This document shows positions 12,820 through 21,327 of a stretch of 64,000 nucleotides of DNA, in pieces; the stretch's first letter is position 1, and every line of letters starts with the position of its first letter. This DNA comes from Candidatus Latescibacterota bacterium (GTDB lineage: Bacteria > Latescibacterota > UBA2968 > UBA8231), in assembly GCA_965197905.1 (NCBI GenBank), contig CBDAOB010000003.1:1136349-1200348 (forward strand). Direction: 5' to 3'. Both the position numbers and the translations under genes were made by a program. The notes under the pieces were generated by a model that had not been told where the DNA came from, searched no databases, and saw only the letters and a list, made by a program, of their open reading frames with translations.

Positions 12820-13122
12820 ATGCTTCTCGCACAGGTCAAAGGCCACGTTGTATCCAGTGCCAAGATCGACAGTTTGACGGGAAAAAAGCTGTTGCTCGTA
12901 GAGATCGTTACCGTGCGCGACGAGGGTTTGGAGCGCACCGAGCGCCACATGGTTTGCGTCGATGCGGTGGGAGCTGGAGAACGGGAACTGGTGCTGGTCG
13001 TCATGGGAAGCTCAGCTCGCGTCGCCCCCCATCTCGGCGACGTACCCACGGATGCGGTCATCGTCGGCATCATCGATTCGCTCCAGGCGTTCGGTCGCGA
13101 CATGGAGTTGGCGGACGCATGA
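12820..13122 (+). CDS. BMC vertex pentamer protein (EutN/CcmL family)
   Basis: MLLAQVKGHVVSSAK..LTGKKLLLV, VDAVGAGERELVLVVMGSSAR, PTDAVIVGIID. Confidence 0.93.
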   Translation: MLLAQVKGHVVSSAKIDSLTGKKLLLVEIVTVRDEGLERTERHMVCVDAVGAGERELVLVVMGSSARVAPHLGDVPTDAVIVGIIDSLQAFGRDMELADA

Positions 13123-13373
13123 AGCGGTGCCGCGTGATTGGCAACGTGGTTTCCAGTTCTAAACATCCGGCGCTGGCTGGCAAGAAGCTTTTGTTGGTCA
13201 GACATCACGAAGAGACCGGCGATCCTGACCCCGGGATTGGCCTCGCCGTGGATGGTGCTGGTGCCGGGATCGGCGATGATGTGATCGTCAGCGAATCCGG
13301 CGAAGCGGGCCGCGCCGTTACGCGTATCGAATATCCTCCCCTGCGCAGTGTAATCGTCGGCATTGTGGACTGA
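13119..13373 (+). CDS. BMC vertex pentamer protein (EutN/CcmL family)
   Basis: MKRCRVIGNVVSSSKHPALAGKKLLLV, AVDGAGAGIGDDVIV, SVIVGIVD; ATGA overlap with the previous gene. Confidence 0.9.
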   Translation: MKRCRVIGNVVSSSKHPALAGKKLLLVRHHEETGDPDPGIGLAVDGAGAGIGDDVIVSESGEAGRAVTRIEYPPLRSVIVGIVD

Positions 13374-13376
13374 TCA

Positions 13377-13661
13377 ATGAAGCTTAATAGGGTCATTGGC
13401 ACGGTGGTCCTGTCACGGTGCATCGAGCCGTTCAAGGGCAGGACCCTACACGTGACGCAGGATCTGAACGAGAGGCTCGAGCTGGTGGGCGATGCGGATG
13501 TCAGCATGGCCTGGGAACCGGTTCGCGAAGGGGAACTGGCCATTGTCGAGATCGCGCGGGAAAGCGCCAATGCGTTCGATCCCCCCGTGCCCACCGACTC
13601 CGTTATTCTCGGCAGGGTCGACCGGGTTCACATCGATGAGAGATATAGCGGAGGTAAGTAG
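13377..13661 (+). CDS. Divergent BMC vertex pentamer protein (EutN/CcmL family)
   Basis: MKLNRVIGTVVLSR, ARESANAFDPPVPTDSVILGRVD. Confidence 0.8.
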   Translation: MKLNRVIGTVVLSRCIEPFKGRTLHVTQDLNERLELVGDADVSMAWEPVREGELAIVEIARESANAFDPPVPTDSVILGRVDRVHIDERYSGGK

Positions 13662-14219
13662 ATGGCAGACGCAATCGGAATGGTAGAAACGGTCGGGTTC
13701 GTTGGGGCGGTGGAAGCGGGTGACGCGATGAGCAAAGCGGCGCAAGTTACGTTGACCGGATGGGACAAGATTGGGGCGGGTCTGACGTCGGTGTTCTGCG
13801 AAGGTGACGTGGCGGCGGTCAAATCGGCGGTCGATGCGGGGGCGCAGGCGGCGGCAAAGGTGGGAACGGTGCACAGCGCTCACGTGATTCCGCGGCCGCA
13901 CTCCGAGTTGGAGTCGGTCTTGCCTTCAGCGTCCAAGGGAAACGGGGTGGTGGTTCAGGCGCTGGGGCTGGTGGAGACGCGGGGCTCGACCGGCGTGATC
14001 GAGGCGGCGGACGCCATGAGCAAAGCGGCAGATGTAGAGGTGGTGAAGATCGCCGAGATTGGCGGCGGTTATATCACGGTGTTGGTGACCGGGGATGTGG
14101 GATCGGTAAAATCGGCGGTGAGTGCTGGATCGGAAGCAGCGGAACGTGTCGGCGAGCTGGTCTCTCAACACGTTATCCCGCGCCCGTCGGACGAGGTCGC
14201 CTCGTTGTATCTAAGTTGA
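13662..14219 (+). CDS. BMC shell protein with two tandem BMC (PF00936-type) domains
   Basis: AIGMVETVG..DAMSKAA..GDVAAVKSAV..HVIPRPH followed by ALGLVETRG..DAMSKAA..HVIPRPS. Confidence 0.92.
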   Translation: MADAIGMVETVGFVGAVEAGDAMSKAAQVTLTGWDKIGAGLTSVFCEGDVAAVKSAVDAGAQAAAKVGTVHSAHVIPRPHSELESVLPSASKGNGVVVQALGLVETRGSTGVIEAADAMSKAADVEVVKIAEIGGGYITVLVTGDVGSVKSAVSAGSEAAERVGELVSQHVIPRPSDEVASLYLS

Positions 14220-14526: not shown

Positions 14527-15954
14527 GTGACCCAGAAGGTGAACGAAGACCAGGTCAGGGAGATCGTCGCCGAGGTCGTCAGCCGGGTGCTTGCGGCGCA
14601 CAGCACTGAACCTGACTCGGGGTTATCGTCCCAGGTGGGCGGCGTTTTCGGGGACGCGGATGCGGCAGTGGCTGCTGCCCGCCGGGCTCAGGGGCAGTTG
14701 CTGTCGATGACGCTGGTAGACCGGAAGCGGATCATCGAAGCCATTCGCGATACTCTGCACTCAGAGGCGGAGAGTTTCGCTCGGCGCACCCTCGAAGAGA
14801 CCGGCATGGGCCGGCTCGAGGACAAGATCCGCAAACACCATGTGGCCGCAGATACGACGCCCGGGGTCGAAGACCTGCATGCTGTTTCGTGGACCGGGGA
14901 TCACGGCCTCACGGTGGTGGAGATGGCGCCGTATGGCGTAATCGCGGCGATAACGCCATCCACCCATCCGGTGCCCACCATGGCAAGCAATGCCATCGGC
15001 ATTGTCGCGGCGGGCAACGCGGCGGTTTTCAATGCTCACCCTGCCGCCAAAAAGATCTCCGCTGCCGCAGTCCAACAGCTAAACACCGCCATCGTAGAAG
15101 CGGGCGGCCCTGCCAACCTGATTACCATCATCGAACATCCAACCGTCGAGAGTGCTACTGAACTGTTCAACCACGCCGGCGTCGACGTCATACTGGTAAC
15201 CGGCGGTCCCGCCGTCGCTCGAGCGGCCATGAGCTGTCCCAAGAAGGCGATCGTAGCGGGGCCCGGCAACCCACCTGTTGTCGTCGACGAAACGGCAGAC
15301 CTGGAACGGGCGGCCCGGGACATCGTCGACGGCGCATCCTTCGACAACAATCTGCTCTGCATCGGCGAGAAGCAGGTGTTCGTCGTGGATTCGGTGGCTG
15401 ACAGCCTGAAATCGCTCATGGTGCGGTACAGCGCTTACGAGCTCAACCCGGAGCAGATCGAACAACTCGTGCGGGAGGCGTTCGTCAGCGAGGGGAGCGG
15501 CGAACCCCGCGTGAATCGCGAGCTGGTGGGGCGCGACGCCGCGGTGCTGGGTGCCCGCATCGGTTTGCAGCTGGAAGACTCGCTGCGACTATTGATCGGC
15601 GAAACCGATGCCGGCCACATCTTCGTGCGGGAAGAGCAGATGATGCCGTTCGTGCCGATCGTCCGGGTGCCCAACGTAGATCAGGGGATTCGCGCCGCGG
15701 TCGAATCGGAGCATGGCTACCGACACACGGCGGTCATTCACTCGCGCAACATCGAGAACATGCACAACATGGCCCGCGCCGCGGATACGACGGTGTTCGT
15801 CAAGAACGGCCCTTCTTACGCGGGATTGGGCATCGGTGGCGAAGGGTTCGGCACCTACTCCATCGCCGGTCCCACCGGAGAAGGGCTGACGTCGGCGAGC
15901 ACCTTTACGCGCCAACGACGCTGCAGCCTCGTAGACTATTTCCGCATCACCTGA
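14527..15954 (+). CDS. CoA-acylating aldehyde dehydrogenase (EutE/PduP family) with N-terminal encapsulation peptide
   Basis: ETGMGRLEDK, TGGPAV, AGPGNPP, SFDNNLLCIGEK, EQMMP, PTGEGLTSA..FTRQRRC; N-terminal helix EDQVREIVAEVVSRVL. Confidence 0.92.
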   Translation: MTQKVNEDQVREIVAEVVSRVLAAHSTEPDSGLSSQVGGVFGDADAAVAAARRAQGQLLSMTLVDRKRIIEAIRDTLHSEAESFARRTLEETGMGRLEDKIRKHHVAADTTPGVEDLHAVSWTGDHGLTVVEMAPYGVIAAITPSTHPVPTMASNAIGIVAAGNAAVFNAHPAAKKISAAAVQQLNTAIVEAGGPANLITIIEHPTVESATELFNHAGVDVILVTGGPAVARAAMSCPKKAIVAGPGNPPVVVDETADLERAARDIVDGASFDNNLLCIGEKQVFVVDSVADSLKSLMVRYSAYELNPEQIEQLVREAFVSEGSGEPRVNRELVGRDAAVLGARIGLQLEDSLRLLIGETDAGHIFVREEQMMPFVPIVRVPNVDQGIRAAVESEHGYRHTAVIHSRNIENMHNMARAADTTVFVKNGPSYAGLGIGGEGFGTYSIAGPTGEGLTSASTFTRQRRCSLVDYFRIT

Positions 15955-15962
15955 ACGGTCCC

Positions 15963-16673
15963 ATGTCCCAATCGAACCGGCAACCGCTCTCCGTGGATCG
16001 CGGCACCATTGAAACCATGGTTCGCGAGATCCTGGGGCGCTACTCGCCCGCCGAGGGTATGGACAAATCTGTAGCCGCCAGGATTCCGCGCCTGGTGGCG
16101 AACATCTCGGCTCGCCATCTCCACCTGAACCGCCAAACACTCGAAACCCTGTTCGGCTCAGGTGCTGAGCTGACGGTGCAGAAAGAGCTATACCAGGAAG
16201 GTGCGTTCGCCGCGGAACAGATGGTCACCGTATTCGGACCGCGGCAGCAGATGATCGCCAACGTTCGCGTTCTGGGTCCGCTGCGCGATTACAACCAGGT
16301 GGAGCTTTCCTTCAGTGATGCGCGTTTCCTGGGCATCGATGCACCCGTTCGCCTGAGTGGCGATCACACCGACACCCCCGGGTGTTACCTGGTAGGTCCC
16401 GCCGGCGGTCTCGAACTGAAAGCGGGAGTGATACGGGCGGCCAGGCACGTCCACATGAGTTCCGACGAAGGCGATTTCTACGGGGTAAAGGCGGGCGACC
16501 TGATGCGGCTCGTGGTAGACAGCGAACAAGGGGGAACACTGAGCGGACTGATCTGCCGGGTCAGTGACCGCGAGAAGCTCGAGGTGCATCTGGACACCGA
16601 CGAAGGCAACGCCGTCGATCTGGCGCGGGCCCGCAAGGTTCACCTGGAGAAAGAAACCGCTGATTCCACATGA
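15963..16673 (+). CDS. pduL: Phosphate propanoyltransferase / phosphotransacylase with N-terminal encapsulation peptide
   Basis: ISARHLHL, VRVLGPLR, PVRLSGD, ARHVHM, EVHLDTDEGNA; N-terminal DRGTIETMVREILGRY. Confidence 0.92.
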   Translation: MSQSNRQPLSVDRGTIETMVREILGRYSPAEGMDKSVAARIPRLVANISARHLHLNRQTLETLFGSGAELTVQKELYQEGAFAAEQMVTVFGPRQQMIANVRVLGPLRDYNQVELSFSDARFLGIDAPVRLSGDHTDTPGCYLVGPAGGLELKAGVIRAARHVHMSSDEGDFYGVKAGDLMRLVVDSEQGGTLSGLICRVSDREKLEVHLDTDEGNAVDLARARKVHLEKETADST

Positions 16674-17152
16674 GCTCCGTACTCCACATACAGGAGATGG
16701 TTGTCACCGGGGACGATCTTGCCCGGGCGCACCAGGGCCAGGAAGTGCTGTGTGTCGTTGCCGCGGCGGTGCTTACGCCGACGGCCTGGGATTACATTCG
16801 CGACCAGCGTTTGCGGCTGACTCGAGGGGAAAGCGCGTCCGTGTCCGAGTCTGTGGCACCGTCGGCGTCGACCAACCTGGTCAACGAGGCGCAGATGGTG
16901 CCCCATGCGCAGTGCGACCAACCGGGAAGTTCCTGCGGATGCACAACCGAGGAGTTTGGCTCCGGTTTTGTTCAACCCGAAAGTTGTGGGGTGTGTGCCA
17001 TACATCAGCTCAAGGTCGCCGGCCAGGCGAACCCCGGATGCGAGGGCTGTAATCTGAACGGGCGCTGCGACGGCGAATCAGGGTCCGCCGCCGCGACGGA
17101 GTCACTCGTGGCACAGATCACCGAGCAGATTGTGGAGCAGCTACGCCGATGA
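16670..17152 (+). CDS. Hypothetical Cys-rich BMC-associated protein with C-terminal encapsulation-peptide-like helix
   Basis: N-terminal VVTGDDL...AVLTPTAWDY domain; CxxxxxxCxC, CxxC, CxxC, C cluster; C-terminal ESLVAQITEQIVEQLRR. Confidence 0.7.
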   Translation: MSSVLHIQEMVVTGDDLARAHQGQEVLCVVAAAVLTPTAWDYIRDQRLRLTRGESASVSESVAPSASTNLVNEAQMVPHAQCDQPGSSCGCTTEEFGSGFVQPESCGVCAIHQLKVAGQANPGCEGCNLNGRCDGESGSAAATESLVAQITEQIVEQLRR

Positions 17153-17712
17153 GCGGCGCGCTAGGTATCATCGAGGCAGAGGGGGTCGCCGGCATCATCG
17201 CCGCCTCGGACGTTGTCGGCAAAACCGCCGACGTCGAGCTGCTTGGCTGGGAGTCGATCGGCGGAATCACCTCCATCTTTTTCCGCGGGACCGTCGCGGA
17301 GGTGGCCGCCTCACTTGAAAGCGGCCGCGAGGCCGCCGCGGCGCTCGCGGACAAGGTTGTGGCGGCCCCGTTGTATCAGCCCGAAGCGGTCTGCAGCGAT
17401 TTCATTGGGCATCCGATGCCGGACGAGATCGAGGTTCCGGATGGCGCACTGGGCTTGCTCGAGTCTCGCGGCTACGGTGCTCACGTGCTGGCTAACGACC
17501 GCATGGTGAAGGCGGCTCCGGTCCGGGTCTACAATCTTCTGGCAGTGCACGATCGCGTCGTTTGCACCCTGATCAACGGCGAGGAGGGTGCGGTTCGAGA
17601 GGCGATTGCCAGCGGCCGCGAACTGTTCGCTCGCGACGTGCGCTTCCGCTGTTCCACCGTTATCTCGCGCCCGTTACCGCACGTGCTGCGGGCGTTCGCG
17701 CCGGGCTGTTAG
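17149..17712 (+). CDS. Divergent BMC shell protein with two tandem BMC domains
   Basis: ALGIIEAEG..DVVGKTADV and ALGLLESRG..DRMVKAAPV..GAVREAI..VISRP. Confidence 0.85.
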   Translation: MSGALGIIEAEGVAGIIAASDVVGKTADVELLGWESIGGITSIFFRGTVAEVAASLESGREAAAALADKVVAAPLYQPEAVCSDFIGHPMPDEIEVPDGALGLLESRGYGAHVLANDRMVKAAPVRVYNLLAVHDRVVCTLINGEEGAVREAIASGRELFARDVRFRCSTVISRPLPHVLRAFAPGC

Positions 17713-17874
17713 TGCCCTGTATCGATAATATGCCTGTATTAATTCGCCGACTCATCCCGACCTGCTTCGTTACGCTCACTCGGCGTATTTCACCAATACG
17801 CCTCGATCGCGCGCCTTGCAGGACGGGCGACTCGGCGCCTTCATTGCACAGGCCTACTTCCGATACAGGGCACT
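17711..17874. mobile_element. MITE-like element with 14-bp perfect terminal inverted repeats
   Basis: AGTGCCCTGTATCG (17711-17724) / CGATACAGGGCACT (17861-17874); internal hairpin GGCGTATT-TCACC-AATACGCC (17782-17802); no ORF. Confidence 0.7.
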
Positions 17875-17887
17875 GAGGAGGCTGCAG

Positions 17888-19045
17888 GTGGCGCAACCAA
17901 GCGCATTCGGGGTGTTGGAGACCCGAGGAGTAACGGCTCAAGTGGCTGCGACCGACGCCATGGTCAAAACTGCTGATGTTCGGGTGTGCGGACGCCAGGC
18001 GATCGGCTCGGGATGGGTAACGGTGGTAGTGGAGGGTGAGGTCGGGGCCGTGCAAGCCGCGGTGGCAAGCGGCGAGCGCGAAGCCGGCAAGTACGGCGAG
18101 CTGATCGGCGCGGACGTCCTGACCGCGCCGGACATGGCGGCCGCCGACATCATGCCACATGCCAGTGGGCTGAGCCCTGCTACCCTCAAACCCCAGCAAG
18201 CTCTCGGCGTCCTCGAGACTCGGGGTTTTGCCCAGCTGGTCGTTGGGGGTGACGCCGCGACCAAGGCGGCGGCGGTAAGTGTCTGCGGCTGGGCTTCTGC
18301 CGGCGGTGCACTGTGCCATCTGGTGGTTCAGGGCGAAGTGGCCAGCGTGTACACTGCCCTGCGCGAAGGTCGCATCGCAGCCGAGACCGCCGGCGAGGTG
18401 TATGCGGCCCTGGTTATTCCACAGCCAGCGGTGGACGTGGCCGGCGTGTTGCCCGTGCCCGCAGGCGCTCAGCCAGCAGAGGTCGGTGCCCTCGGAATAC
18501 TGGAGACCACCGGATATACCGGTTCGGTGGCGGCTGCGGACGCGATGGCCAAAACGGCTGAGATCGGAGTGGCGCGTTTCAATATTGGAAGTGGTGGACG
18601 CACCGCTGTTATGACCACGGGAAAACTGGACGATGTCCAGGCCGGCATCGAGCCCGGTGTTGCCGCGGCCAAACTGGCTGGTGGATTCGAGAACGCCCGT
18701 GTCGTCACCCGGCCCGACCCGGATATCGTGGCCTGTTTCGCGCAGGCAACAACCAGTGCCGCACCGAAGGGGCTGGCCCTCGGATTAATCGAAACCCGCA
18801 GCACCGTGGCTCTGGTGAAGGCGATGGACGAGATGCTCAAAGGGGCCGACGTGGAGTACGAAGGCCGGGTGAAGGTGGGGTTCTATCTCACCGCCGGTGC
18901 GATTCGCGGTGACGTGGGCGCCGTCAGAGTGGCATTGGATCTGGGTGCGAAAGAGGCTCGTCGCCATGGGGAACTGGTCGCAACGCACTTGATACCGCAA
19001 CCCGACCGGGGTATGGAGCCACCGCTACCACATCGAGGAACGTAA
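17888..19045 (+). CDS. BMC shell protein with four tandem BMC domains
   Basis: Four units starting AFGVLETRG, ALGVLETRG, ALGILETTG and ALGLIETRS, each with D-x3-K and a terminal P-x-P-like motif; GTG at 17888 follows GAGGAG. Confidence 0.88.
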   Translation: MAQPSAFGVLETRGVTAQVAATDAMVKTADVRVCGRQAIGSGWVTVVVEGEVGAVQAAVASGEREAGKYGELIGADVLTAPDMAAADIMPHASGLSPATLKPQQALGVLETRGFAQLVVGGDAATKAAAVSVCGWASAGGALCHLVVQGEVASVYTALREGRIAAETAGEVYAALVIPQPAVDVAGVLPVPAGAQPAEVGALGILETTGYTGSVAAADAMAKTAEIGVARFNIGSGGRTAVMTTGKLDDVQAGIEPGVAAAKLAGGFENARVVTRPDPDIVACFAQATTSAAPKGLALGLIETRSTVALVKAMDEMLKGADVEYEGRVKVGFYLTAGAIRGDVGAVRVALDLGAKEARRHGELVATHLIPQPDRGMEPPLPHRGT

Positions 19046-19065
19046 TCACCAGGAAGAGAACAAAC

Positions 19066-20226
19066 ATGGTACGCATCGCAGCTAGAGTGATCACGGGTCC
19101 GATGCTGGAGGAACAGCTCGCTGGCTCCGGCTCTGTGCAGATCGACAGGGGAGCGGTACTGACGCCCTCGGCGTTGGACTACCTAAAGGCTCACGAGGTC
19201 TCGGTGGTGCGCGACGGAGATGTGCCGCCTGCTGCCGCGAAGGGGGAGAAGCAAAACAGCCCCGTCGCGGGAGCGAAGCGGTTTCAAGGAATTTTTGTGC
19301 CCAACGTCGTCATCTTCGACGCTGACGGAAACATCAACTTCGGCGAAATGGAGCGTTACATCGCCTGGTTGATCGACGCTGGCATTCACGGACTCTACCC
19401 CAACGGAAGCACCGGCGAATTCGTGCGGCTTTCCGCCGAGGAGCGGCGGGAGGTGGTGCGCATCATCGCAAATGTAAACCAGGGGCGAGTTCCGATTCTG
19501 GCCGGTGCCAGCGAAGCGAATGTGCGCGACGTGCTGGATACGGCGGAGTATTACGCGCGTTTGGATGTGGATGCCATCTCCCTGGTGCCTCCGTACTACT
19601 ACAAGATCTCCGAACGCAGCCTGTTCGAGTATTTCGCCGAGATCGCCCGCAACTCGCCCCTCGATATCTTGCTCTACAACATTCCCCAGTTCACCCAGGA
19701 GCTCACCCTGGATATCATGGAGGAGCTGCTCCCGTTCGAGCGCATCTTCGGCACCAAGGACTCGAGCCGAGACCTGCCACGGATCGTAAATACAATCCAC
19801 CGGTTGCGCCCCCAGCGTCCCGACTACGTGGTGCTCAACGGCTGTGAGGAGATCCTGCTGCCTGCTATCATCATGGGCGCAGACGGCGGCACCATCGCCA
19901 CCGCTGGCATCATACCCGAGGTAATCGCCGAGTTGTACCGGTGCTCTCTCGAGGGAGAAATCGAGCGCGCCCGCATGCTGCAGTATCGCATCATCGACCT
20001 CATAAACCTGATGCTGTTGGGTGCCAGTTTCCCCCAGGGGTTCAAGACAGGTGTGGCGGTGCGCGGGTTTGACGTAGGTCCACCCCGCCAGGTCATGAGC
20101 ACCCAGGAGCGCGAAGTCCTGTCGCAACTGGAGGCGCAGATTACCTGTCTGCTGGACGACATGGGATACGAGGTGGACGGAGCAAGCAGCTGCCCCGTGA
20201 CCAATACACCCCCCATTGTCAACTAG
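19066..20226 (+). CDS. DapA/NAL-family class I aldolase with an extra N-terminal BMC-associated domain
   Basis: NGSTGEF, PPYYY, LYNIP, Schiff-base KDSS; N-terminal ~50 aa VITGPMLEE...AVLTPSALDYLK. Confidence 0.88.
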   Translation: MVRIAARVITGPMLEEQLAGSGSVQIDRGAVLTPSALDYLKAHEVSVVRDGDVPPAAAKGEKQNSPVAGAKRFQGIFVPNVVIFDADGNINFGEMERYIAWLIDAGIHGLYPNGSTGEFVRLSAEERREVVRIIANVNQGRVPILAGASEANVRDVLDTAEYYARLDVDAISLVPPYYYKISERSLFEYFAEIARNSPLDILLYNIPQFTQELTLDIMEELLPFERIFGTKDSSRDLPRIVNTIHRLRPQRPDYVVLNGCEEILLPAIIMGADGGTIATAGIIPEVIAELYRCSLEGEIERARMLQYRIIDLINLMLLGASFPQGFKTGVAVRGFDVGPPRQVMSTQEREVLSQLEAQITCLLDDMGYEVDGASSCPVTNTPPIVN

Positions 20227-20232
20227 AGGACC

Positions 20233-21327
20233 GTGACGGGGCTCCGCAGCGGACCGAAGGTCGCGGTCATTGGCGCCGGAGTCATCGGCCGTTTCATAGC
20301 CTACCAGCTTACCGCACGGGGAATCCCCGTCGACCTTCTCGACCCCGGTCCCGATCCCTCATCCACTACCGCCGCCTCTCTTGGGGTGTTGACCCACTTC
20401 AACGGGGGCGACGATCCATATTCGCTGCTCTACCGGGACAGCTACCACAGTTATTGCGAGCTGGCGGTCCAACTGGAGCACCAGACGGGCATCGATATCG
20501 GCTGGCGCCCGCTGGGGGGAATCGATCTGATATTCGACGAGGACGATGAGGCCGCGGCTGCCGCAACAGTCGCGTTCAATCGCTCGCGACACTGCGTCGT
20601 CGAACAGCTGGACCGTGACCGCGTACACGAACTGGAACCGGCCATATCCGAGAAGGTCCAGGGAGGATTGTATTTCCCCGACGACCAGCGCGTCGACCCG
20701 GCGAAGCTGGCCGCCGCGCTTATCAAGGCCATCGAACAGCAGGGTGGGGTCGCCCACTTCGGGGTCCGGGTGCTCGGTTTCGGCGACGTGACACGGCAGG
20801 GAGTTTCCCTGCAGACGACTTCGAGCACATTCGAGGCTGATGTGGTAGTGCTGGCAGCAGGTTGCTGGACCGGCGAGCTCGGCCGCATGCTCGGCGCCCA
20901 CATCCCCGTTCGACCGATCAGGGGGCAGCATTGCCGTTTTTCAGGGGCCGCCGTCGAGCACGTGGTGCGCTACGACGGTCGGCACCTCCTCGCCTCCGAT
21001 GAGTTCACGGTCGTGGGGGCAACCGTGGAGGACGTCGGTTTCGACGTGGAGGTATCGGCGTTGGCGCGTCAGGAGCTGTCCACTTTCGTGGGGGCAACCG
21101 TCAAACCCCATATGAGTTTTCACCAGCAGCGCGCGGGGCTGCGGCCCAAACCCAAGGGGGGTCGTCCCCTGATCGGACCACTGGAGGAATACCCGCAGGT
21201 ATTCGTCGCAACGGGTCACTATAAGAACGGAATTCAGCTGGGGCCGGGGACGGGGGAGGCGGTGGCACGATGGATCGTTGATGGGGACCCTGGCCGGCAG
21301 ATGGGGCGGTTCAAGCCGGAAAGGTAG
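20233..21327 (+). CDS. FAD-dependent oxidoreductase, glycine oxidase (ThiO)/D-amino acid oxidase family
   Basis: VIGAGVIG, AASLGVL, VVLAAGCW, RPIRGQ, AGLRP, ATGHYKNGI. Confidence 0.85.
   Translation: MTGLRSGPKVAVIGAGVIGRFIAYQLTARGIPVDLLDPGPDPSSTTAASLGVLTHFNGGDDPYSLLYRDSYHSYCELAVQLEHQTGIDIGWRPLGGIDLIFDEDDEAAAAATVAFNRSRHCVVEQLDRDRVHELEPAISEKVQGGLYFPDDQRVDPAKLAAALIKAIEQQGGVAHFGVRVLGFGDVTRQGVSLQTTSSTFEADVVVLAAGCWTGELGRMLGAHIPVRPIRGQHCRFSGAAVEHVVRYDGRHLLASDEFTVVGATVEDVGFDVEVSALARQELSTFVGATVKPHMSFHQQRAGLRPKPKGGRPLIGPLEEYPQVFVATGHYKNGIQLGPGTGEAVARWIVDGDPGRQMGRFKPER

Follow-up and report, generated by a model that had tools for sequence, protein, structure and literature searches.

The question raised by this locus is how a bacterial microcompartment (BMC) shell protein that carries four BMC domains in one chain could be fitted into a hexagonal shell tile. 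The stretch analysed (the window) comprises 64,000 nucleotides of contig CBDAOB010000003.1, positions 1,136,349 to 1,200,348, in the assembly GCA_965197905.1 of a Candidatus Latescibacterota bacterium, and the two genes in question, here designated p2 and p4, encode shell proteins with two and four BMC domains, respectively. The arrangement we favour, with a probability of roughly 70% and on the strength of gene pairing, domain conservation and structure modelling, is a 1:1 complex in which p2 and p4 would form a two-chain pseudohexamer with six different domains, making up a single flat hexagonal shell tile.

The p4 product contains four stretches that match PF00936 (229.7 bits, E 2.4e-69), three of them spanning the entire profile (1-75 of 75), and the p2 product contains two (100.4 bits, E 5.3e-29); the Pfam gathering cut-off is 24.5 bits. 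The sequence-only reading, which had seen four divergent BMC domains in one open frame at 17888-19045, is thus borne out by the profile scan. The p4 domains (D1 to D4, also written p4D1 to p4D4) begin at residues 6, 105, 201 and 297 (approximately 17903-18157, 18200-18457, 18488-18742 and 18776-19027) in an uninterrupted reading frame, and those of p2 (p2D1 and p2D2) at residues 4 and 100 (approximately 17158-17412 and 17446-17700). The predicted masses are 38.7 kDa for p4 and 19.5 kDa for p2. The start of p4 was placed at the GTG at 17888, 6 nt downstream of a GAGGAGG motif. The TTG at 17816, which opens the longest reading frame, was rejected because the homologues begin at the position of 17888, and the longer frame enters inserted DNA.

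Pairwise identity among the six p2 and p4 domains is 27-43%. In both proteins the domains recur with a period of 96-99 residues, which is roughly carried on past the boundary between the two genes. Within p4, the start-to-start spacing is 99 residues from D1 to D2 and 96 from both D2 to D3 and D3 to D4, and the D2-D3 linker is no longer than the others, which together with the confident structural model described below argues for p4 being one continuous arc. Each domain also retains the edge lysine of a D-x-x-x-K motif (K27, K126, K222 and K318 in p4, K25 and K121 in p2), and all six lysines are invariant in 68 sequences. The aspartate of the motif is invariant in five domains, and D218 is present in at least 90% of sequences. 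In PduA and the Haliangium ochraceum shell, this edge lysine makes the tile-to-tile contacts, and its presence in all six domains suggests that a tile built from them could sit among BMC-H hexamers. The second domain of p2 carries the sequence T-V-H-D/N-R-V-V-C in place of the usual glycine-rich pore loop (residues 134-139, window positions 17548-17565), with His134 conserved in 66, Arg136 in 67 and Cys139 in all of the 68 sequences. Cys82, in the p2 linker, is also near-invariant.

A word-indexed homologue search with p4, covering proteins of 211-674 aa, gave 215 matches, and the figures that follow are from the best 120. All but one are 365-393 aa in length, with 50-97% identity and at least 92% coverage, and the remaining one is a 269-aa piece. 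The sequence-only reading had allowed that the homologues might be two separate two-domain genes, joined here by the loss of a stop codon; with 119 of the best 120 matches at full length, they are not. The four-domain length is kept down to 45-50% identity in assemblies named as Latescibacterota, Gemmatimonadota, Planctomycetota and Handelsmanbacteria. Several short proteins (P0129 and P0132-P0136) that were considered as split p4 homologues were rejected as frameshifted or truncated pieces. From 1.84 billion representative proteins, a profile search recovered P0124 (387 aa, four stretches) as the single full-length representative, together with fragments. Pfam scanning of 30 of the top or long matches gave four PF00936 stretches in one protein, three in 17 and two in 12, and no BMC protein with five or six domains was found in this search.

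Conserved three-domain BMC proteins exist outside the window (P0139, P0142, P0130, P0131, P0137-P0143, P0150, P0171, P0173, P0175 and P0183), although a few of the 17 scanned proteins with three stretches are fragments of p4. For P0139, 65 of the best 120 matches are 283-345 aa long with at least 93% coverage and 42-100% identity, some of them named as Sumerlaeia or Hydrogenedentota. Two three-domain chains would likewise sum to six domains.

The association of p2 with p4 was followed across genomes. A locus scan using one genome per species recovered 72 loci, four of which are cut at a contig end, and in all of the 68 uncut loci an orthologue of p2 (42-94% identity) lies directly upstream of p4. 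The p2 stop and the p4 start are -14 to +10 nt apart; the start codons were assigned by alignment, and these distances are approximate to a few codons. All 68 loci carry the four-domain gene, with p4 truncated at 290 aa in one (L071). Among 168 genomes of the phylum, p2 was detected in 84 (E up to 1e-25) and p4 in 83 (E up to 1e-40), and p4 was not found without p2 in any; these genomes are mutually related and the counts do not represent independent events. The sole discordant genome (G096; 980 contigs, 85% complete) has a p2 match that is cut at a contig end. Co-occurrence and adjacency, suggested as a check when the pair was first noticed, both came out in favour of the pairing.

Six-domain fusions, looked for on the same suggestion, did not materialise. 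A stop codon is present between the two genes in all 68 loci, the longest of the best 120 matches in the 211-674-aa search is 393 aa, and a search of proteins of 675-2000 aa returned only a fusion of BMC and AldDh domains with 23% query coverage. An open frame of 581 aa that was considered as a six-domain fusion was rejected, as it consists of p2 and p4 in one frame split by one TGA and two codons. The same configuration characterises a genus-level clade, g24, in which p2 (185 aa) and p4 (386 aa) share a frame (L083, 383-2110, minus strand; L084, 456-2183, minus strand; L085, 205-1932, plus strand; also L019 and L028). Readthrough of the TGA in these loci would yield a single six-domain chain. 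In clades other than g24, p2 and p4 are in different frames, with overlaps of 1-14 nt.

A maximum likelihood tree was built from 408 domains (67 loci and the window, with L071 dropped) and three other BMC domains of the locus. Sequences from any one domain position group exclusively together, giving six clades of 68 with support of 1.0, 1.0, 0.97, 0.67, 0.98 and 0.99, the two p2 clades both being supported at 1.0. The domain architecture, its conservation, the pairing of the genes and the orthology of each position are thus the parts that the analysis shows directly, and the 1:1 ring is a prediction. The branching between positions was rejected as a record of the duplications, because the groupings of p2D1 with p4D2 (0.81) and of p2D2 with p4D3 (0.76) are too weak. 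As the six positions differ and are separately conserved, a tile made from them would have no internal symmetry and its central pore would be lined by six different loops.

An AlphaFold2 model of the p4 monomer, built with 68 sequences, has a mean predicted local distance difference test (pLDDT) score of 93.3 and a predicted template modelling (pTM) score of 0.90. The high pTM indicates that the four domains hold a defined mutual arrangement. Secondary structure assigned by DSSP gives the order beta-alpha-beta-beta-alpha-beta, the canonical form that is not circularly permuted, four times over. The best match to p4 in the Protein Data Bank (PDB) is 6NER (sequence E 2e-51), a synthetic tandem fusion of BMC-H from a Haliangium ochraceum shell, and consecutive p4 domains superpose on its chains with template modelling (TM) scores of 0.87-0.91 and a root-mean-square deviation (rmsd) of 2.5-3.5 Å over about 180-185 columns at 40-41% identity. 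On chains of the PduT type the TM score is 0.42 and the rmsd 14.6 Å, with only one domain superposing. No solved chain with more than two BMC domains was present among the best 60 of 64 PDB sequence matches or among the Foldseek matches listed.

A complex of the p4 and p2 pair was modelled with ESMFold2 in three runs, using custom alignments (A3 and A4) and three controls. The interaction prediction score from aligned errors (ipSAE) was 0.88 in the three runs, and the highest value for a control was 0.00. At least 98% of contacts recur between runs, and the pLDDT of the partner is 92 or higher. The mark applied is reached by 116 of 157 solved complexes and by 2 of 215 mismatched pairs, counts that apply only approximately to custom alignments. 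In the model, p4 domain 1 (residues 7-47 and 73-91) contacts p2 domain 2 (107-138 and 185), and p4 domain 4 (304-335 and 360-361) contacts p2 domain 1 (7-42 and 71-85), with p2 touching no other p4 domain. The two halves of the interface are alike, and in the model p2 closes, in head-to-tail register, both free ends of an arc of p4 covering four sixths of the ring. As a prediction, this supports binding of p2 to p4.

The ring would then read p2D1-p2D2-p4D1-p4D2-p4D3-p4D4, collinear with the genes, with p2 filling the gap left by p4 by placing p2D2 on p4D1 and p2D1 on p4D4. Conserved basic residues in the predicted pore loops (His134 and Arg136 in p2D2, Arg36 in p4D1, Arg238 in p4D3 and Lys329 in p4D4) may indicate a role of the pore, perhaps in the passage of anionic metabolites.

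Several observations weigh against the predicted 1:1 ring. The complex controls were unrelated proteins, none of them a BMC protein, and the score consequently does not address partner preference. BMC hexamers are also well represented among solved structures, and the model may pass merely on that account. Taken together, these two points mean that what the model demonstrates is the feasibility of a hexamer layout rather than any preference for p2 above other BMC proteins. Covariation between the chains was not detected: at a depth of about 21 effective sequences, none of the top 200 pairs ranked by mutual information with average product correction (MI-APC) falls in the predicted interface (2.1 expected), and Mann-Whitney comparisons gave a p value of 0.056 when all other pairs were the reference and of 0.36 when mismatched faces were. 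Nor is the p4D1 face appreciably more conserved than the rest of its domain (entropy 0.99 vs 1.06), and the other three inter-chain faces, at 0.89, 0.76 and 0.51, are near or within the intrachain range of 0.49-0.88. Support along the backbone of the domain tree is low (0.76-0.81). Finally, p2 has the size and the domain count of a standard tandem shell protein and could trimerise alone.

This last point leads to the alternative that survives best, in which p4 assembles without p2: three p4 chains with 12 domains would make two linked or stacked rings, or p4 would staple neighbouring tiles, and p2 would form its own homotrimer. Twelve domains do divide evenly into two rings, and the undetected covariation between p2 and p4 also counts in favour of this scheme. 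However, a p4 chain that bridges two rings is at odds with a D2-D3 linker that is not longer than its neighbours and is confidently modelled (pLDDT blocks of 94 and 86; pTM 0.90), and this scheme leaves unexplained the co-occurrence in 83 of 84 genomes, the abutment in 68 of 68 loci and the six separately conserved positions. In the complex model, moreover, p2 fits both free ends of p4. The sequence-only reading had set a 4+2 tile beside a complex of three p4 chains, and the even linkers, the rigid p4 model and the predicted contacts of p2 on p4D1 and p4D4 favour the former; the latter is considered unlikely.

A slightly less likely alternative is that the p4 ring is closed by a different partner, either two copies of the 87-aa BMC-H or the second tandem protein of the locus (13662-14219), with the pairing of p2 and p4 reflecting only a shared operon. 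Any canonical BMC domain has the side faces required, both candidates are encoded in the same locus, and the controls used for the complex included no BMC protein. Against this, p2 is a specialised and separately conserved lineage, both of its domains forming exclusive clades with support of 1.0, and its second domain has the unusual loop with near-invariant His134, Arg136 and Cys139. The p2 stop overlaps or abuts the p4 start in every one of the 68 loci, and p4 does not occur without p2 in the 168 genomes.

The third alternative, that the four-domain frame is an assembly artefact or a recent stop-loss fusion of two two-domain genes, has nothing in its favour other than a recent 174-nt insertion beside p4, and is highly improbable given that the insertion lies outside both reading frames, that the four-domain length is conserved to 45-50% identity across named phyla and that the half-length matches are fragments.

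The insertion does affect one part of the sequence-only reading, which had placed a two-domain gene directly upstream of p4. The two PF00936 domains of p2 are confirmed, but the genes are not adjacent here, as the p2 stop (17710-17712) and the p4 start at 17888 are separated by a 175-nt spacer that was seen only in this genome among the loci examined. The insertion is missing from the nearest relative (L001, 92-94% protein identity), which reads TAG-G-GTG at this point. Most of it is a MITE-like (miniature inverted-repeat transposable element) repeat whose unit, including the TAG, is 165 nt (17710-17874), with 27-nt terminal inverted repeats at 17711-17737 and 17848-17874, and the p2 stop codon is the TAG at its left end. 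The same 6.69-Mb genome contains nine other near-full copies (L074-L082, 75-94% identity; for example C3:100367-100533 and C4:1409393-1409557) and six partial copies. The copies have TAG-flanked ends and the termini TAGTGCCC...GGGCACTAG. Two of them, L077 and L078, have identical flanks, indicating one region that was duplicated or assembled twice. The inserted sequence is predicted to fold as RNA into a long hairpin (-81.4 kcal/mol, z -5.26), and no promoter-like or terminator-like sites were found in 17000-19200.

To the right of the repeat are 12-13 nt not found in the other copies, and these supply the GAGGAGG that lies 6 nt before the p4 GTG. In the relatives, overlapping or abutting stop and start codons would probably help to equalise the synthesis of p2 and p4. 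In this genome that coupling appears to have been broken by the repeat insertion, and p4 would use its own strong ribosome-binding site instead. Both reading frames are intact despite the insertion, and its presence indicates that the stop-start overlap is not indispensable, at least where p4 has its own ribosome-binding site. Public runs X1, X2, X4 and X5 were compared as contigs only. In two RNA runs, the share of matching sequence words was 0.04. A contig from X1, which may be the sample of origin of the assembly, spans 17793-18300 with one difference and has the insertion form, whereas contigs from X2 (472 nt, 6 differences), X4 and X5 (1945 nt, 37 differences) join 17712 straight to 17887. 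Forms with and without the insertion thus both exist in nature.

The features of the window are listed in the table below. The BMC-P triplet, the acylating aldehyde dehydrogenase (AldDh) and the phosphotransacylase (PTAC) genes all lie within 5 kb upstream of p2 and p4. Of the 10 PF00936 matches in the genome, nine are in the BMC locus, and p2 and p4 are both single-copy. The tenth, a lone BMC-H domain, lies far from the main locus on another contig (C4:115944-116171, minus strand), within an open frame of 166 aa.

Features of the BMC locus and of the insertion between p2 and p4 (positions are those of the window)
Feature	Position	Strand	Basis
BMC locus	~11.3-21.3 kb	+	Pfam
Three BMC-P (EutN/CcmL) pentamer genes	12820-13122, ~13119-13373, 13377-13661	+	PF03319, E 6.9e-25, 2e-20, 3.2e-08
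Second two-domain BMC protein, ordinary type, 185 aa	13662-14219	+	PF00936, 2 stretches
BMC-H, 87 aa	14234-14497	+	PF00936, 1 stretch
Acylating aldehyde dehydrogenase (AldDh)	14527-15954	+	PF00171; NCBIfam PRK15398, 645.5 bits vs cut-off 403
Phosphotransacylase PduL/PTAC	15963-16673	+	PF06130
Cys-rich protein, 160 aa	16670-17152	+	Translation; fits MUF2 description
p2, two-domain BMC shell protein, 187 aa	17149-17712	+	PF00936, 2 stretches
Insertion between p2 and p4, 174 nt	17713-17886		Comparison with L001 and public-run contigs
p4, four-domain BMC shell protein, 385 aa	17888-19045	+	PF00936, 4 stretches
DHDPS-family (pfam00701) class I aldolase, 72-aa N-terminal extension	19066-20226	+	PF00701 from residue 73 on
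DAO-family FAD oxidoreductase	20233-21327	+	PF01266

The Cys-rich protein encoded immediately before p2 belongs to no family in the Pfam and NCBIfam scans. It has eight cysteines in residues 82-133 and an amphipathic C-terminal helix, and the 3′-end of its gene shares 4 nt with the start of p2, with no upstream overlap of note. The N-terminus of this protein and that of the aldolase (within 19066-19281) are 31% identical over 49 aa (E 3e-4), and the common domain of about 50 aa may be a targeting or docking module. A class I aldolase related to DHDPS and NanA and a flavoprotein resembling glycine/D-amino-acid oxidases follow straight after the shell genes, and both fall under every NCBIfam cut-off (best scores 169 vs 281 and 197 vs 250.8, respectively). 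Judged from the gene content, the combination of aldolase, flavoprotein, AldDh and PduL suggests oxidation of an amino- or keto-acid and its cleavage to an aldehyde within the organelle. Three matches to PF00596 are found on contig C5 of the same genome.

A locus type of similar content has been catalogued. The supplement of a survey of BMC loci (Sutter et al. 2021, Nat Commun 12:3809) describes, for the MUF2 type, "very unusual quadruple linear fusions" beside a double "Ts_hazel" protein, both uncharacterised, and the catalogue counts 13 such loci; in its description of these loci, no link between the double and the quadruple protein, adjacency or assembly is given. The same source lists for MUF2 a protein with a Cys-rich middle and a C-terminal encapsulation peptide, whose N-terminal domain is common to a nearby pfam00701 aldolase, together with AldDh and PTAC, a BMC-P triplet, a satellite pfam00596 aldolase and a lone satellite BMC-H with a C-terminal extension (Sutter et al. 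2021). As far as that description goes, the present locus matches in its AldDh, PTAC, BMC-P triplet, Cys-rich protein and pfam00701 aldolase, and the taxa likewise include Gemmatimonadetes and Handelsmanbacteria. Candidate counterparts of the satellite genes are the PF00596 matches on contig C5 and the lone BMC-H on contig C4, which may represent the extended satellite form (H_darkrose). By the wording of the supplement, p2 would correspond to the "Ts_hazel" class and p4 to the "quadruple linear fusion, large H_blurple"; compared by count and length, they agree with it in the number of domains and in the 194-aa length class. Matched by description, the two are probably the same protein pair. 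The set is much enlarged here: the catalogue has 13 loci, whereas 72 were recovered in this analysis, and p4 was detected in 83 of the 168 genomes of one phylum.

The sequence-only reading had known of no characterised protein of this kind. The quadruple fusion does have a name in that catalogue, but in the supplement it is uncharacterised and no assembly is proposed for it. No later paper on a four-domain BMC fusion or on MUF2 assembly was found in a literature search that left subscription journals outside its range. The four-domain protein is hence already catalogued, and the assembly model and the comparative support for it are new. Within an organelle of this type, an AldDh/PduL metabolosome, the p2-p4 tile would be placed among ordinary BMC-H hexamers in the facets.

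Characterised hexagonal shell tiles are not known to be anything other than homo-oligomers, six-fold or three-fold symmetric, or loose mixtures of single-domain chains. On balance, p2 and p4 would probably constitute a natural, obligate two-chain tile with six different ring positions in fixed order, and the first fully asymmetric building block of a BMC shell. If so, covalent linkage has been used by evolution to fix six different domains in one ring, giving one non-symmetric pore and six individually specified edges, each of which could be tuned independently, an arrangement that specialists would find surprising. Such a tile could take up a defined orientation in the facet, or offer a single binding site for cargo or a partner per tile, and for shell engineering it would provide a natural scaffold with six separately addressable positions. 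Two questions follow for the uncharacterised MUF2 organelle, which occurs widely in Latescibacterota and Gemmatimonadota: what passes through an asymmetric pore, and whether the tile takes a particular place or orientation within the shell.

Known systems of comparable composition are the standard tandem proteins, BMC-T(s), such as PduT (3PAC) and H. ochraceum BMC-T1 (5DIH), which are homotrimeric pseudohexamers. Like p2 and p4, they consist of fused canonical PF00936 domains and need fewer than six chains for a tile of hexamer size. They have exactly two PF00936 domains per chain, as does p2 but not p4 with its four. A BMC-T(s) homotrimer is three-fold symmetric, with two kinds of position, whereas the predicted p2-p4 tile has two chains, no symmetry and six kinds of position. 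The fusion in 6NER is the nearest in geometry, with BMC-H domains fused head-to-tail occupying neighbouring ring positions in a real shell, though unlike p4 it is an engineered protein whose two domains are identical and which assembles as a homotrimer. The beta-carboxysome proteins CcmK3 and CcmK4, reportedly described by Sommer and colleagues in 2019 as forming heterohexamers, are said to make one hexameric tile from more than one gene product and so to break the six-fold symmetry. Their chains reportedly have single domains and combine in variable ratios, whereas in a tile of p2 and p4 the 4+2 stoichiometry and the order of the domains would be fixed by covalent linkage.

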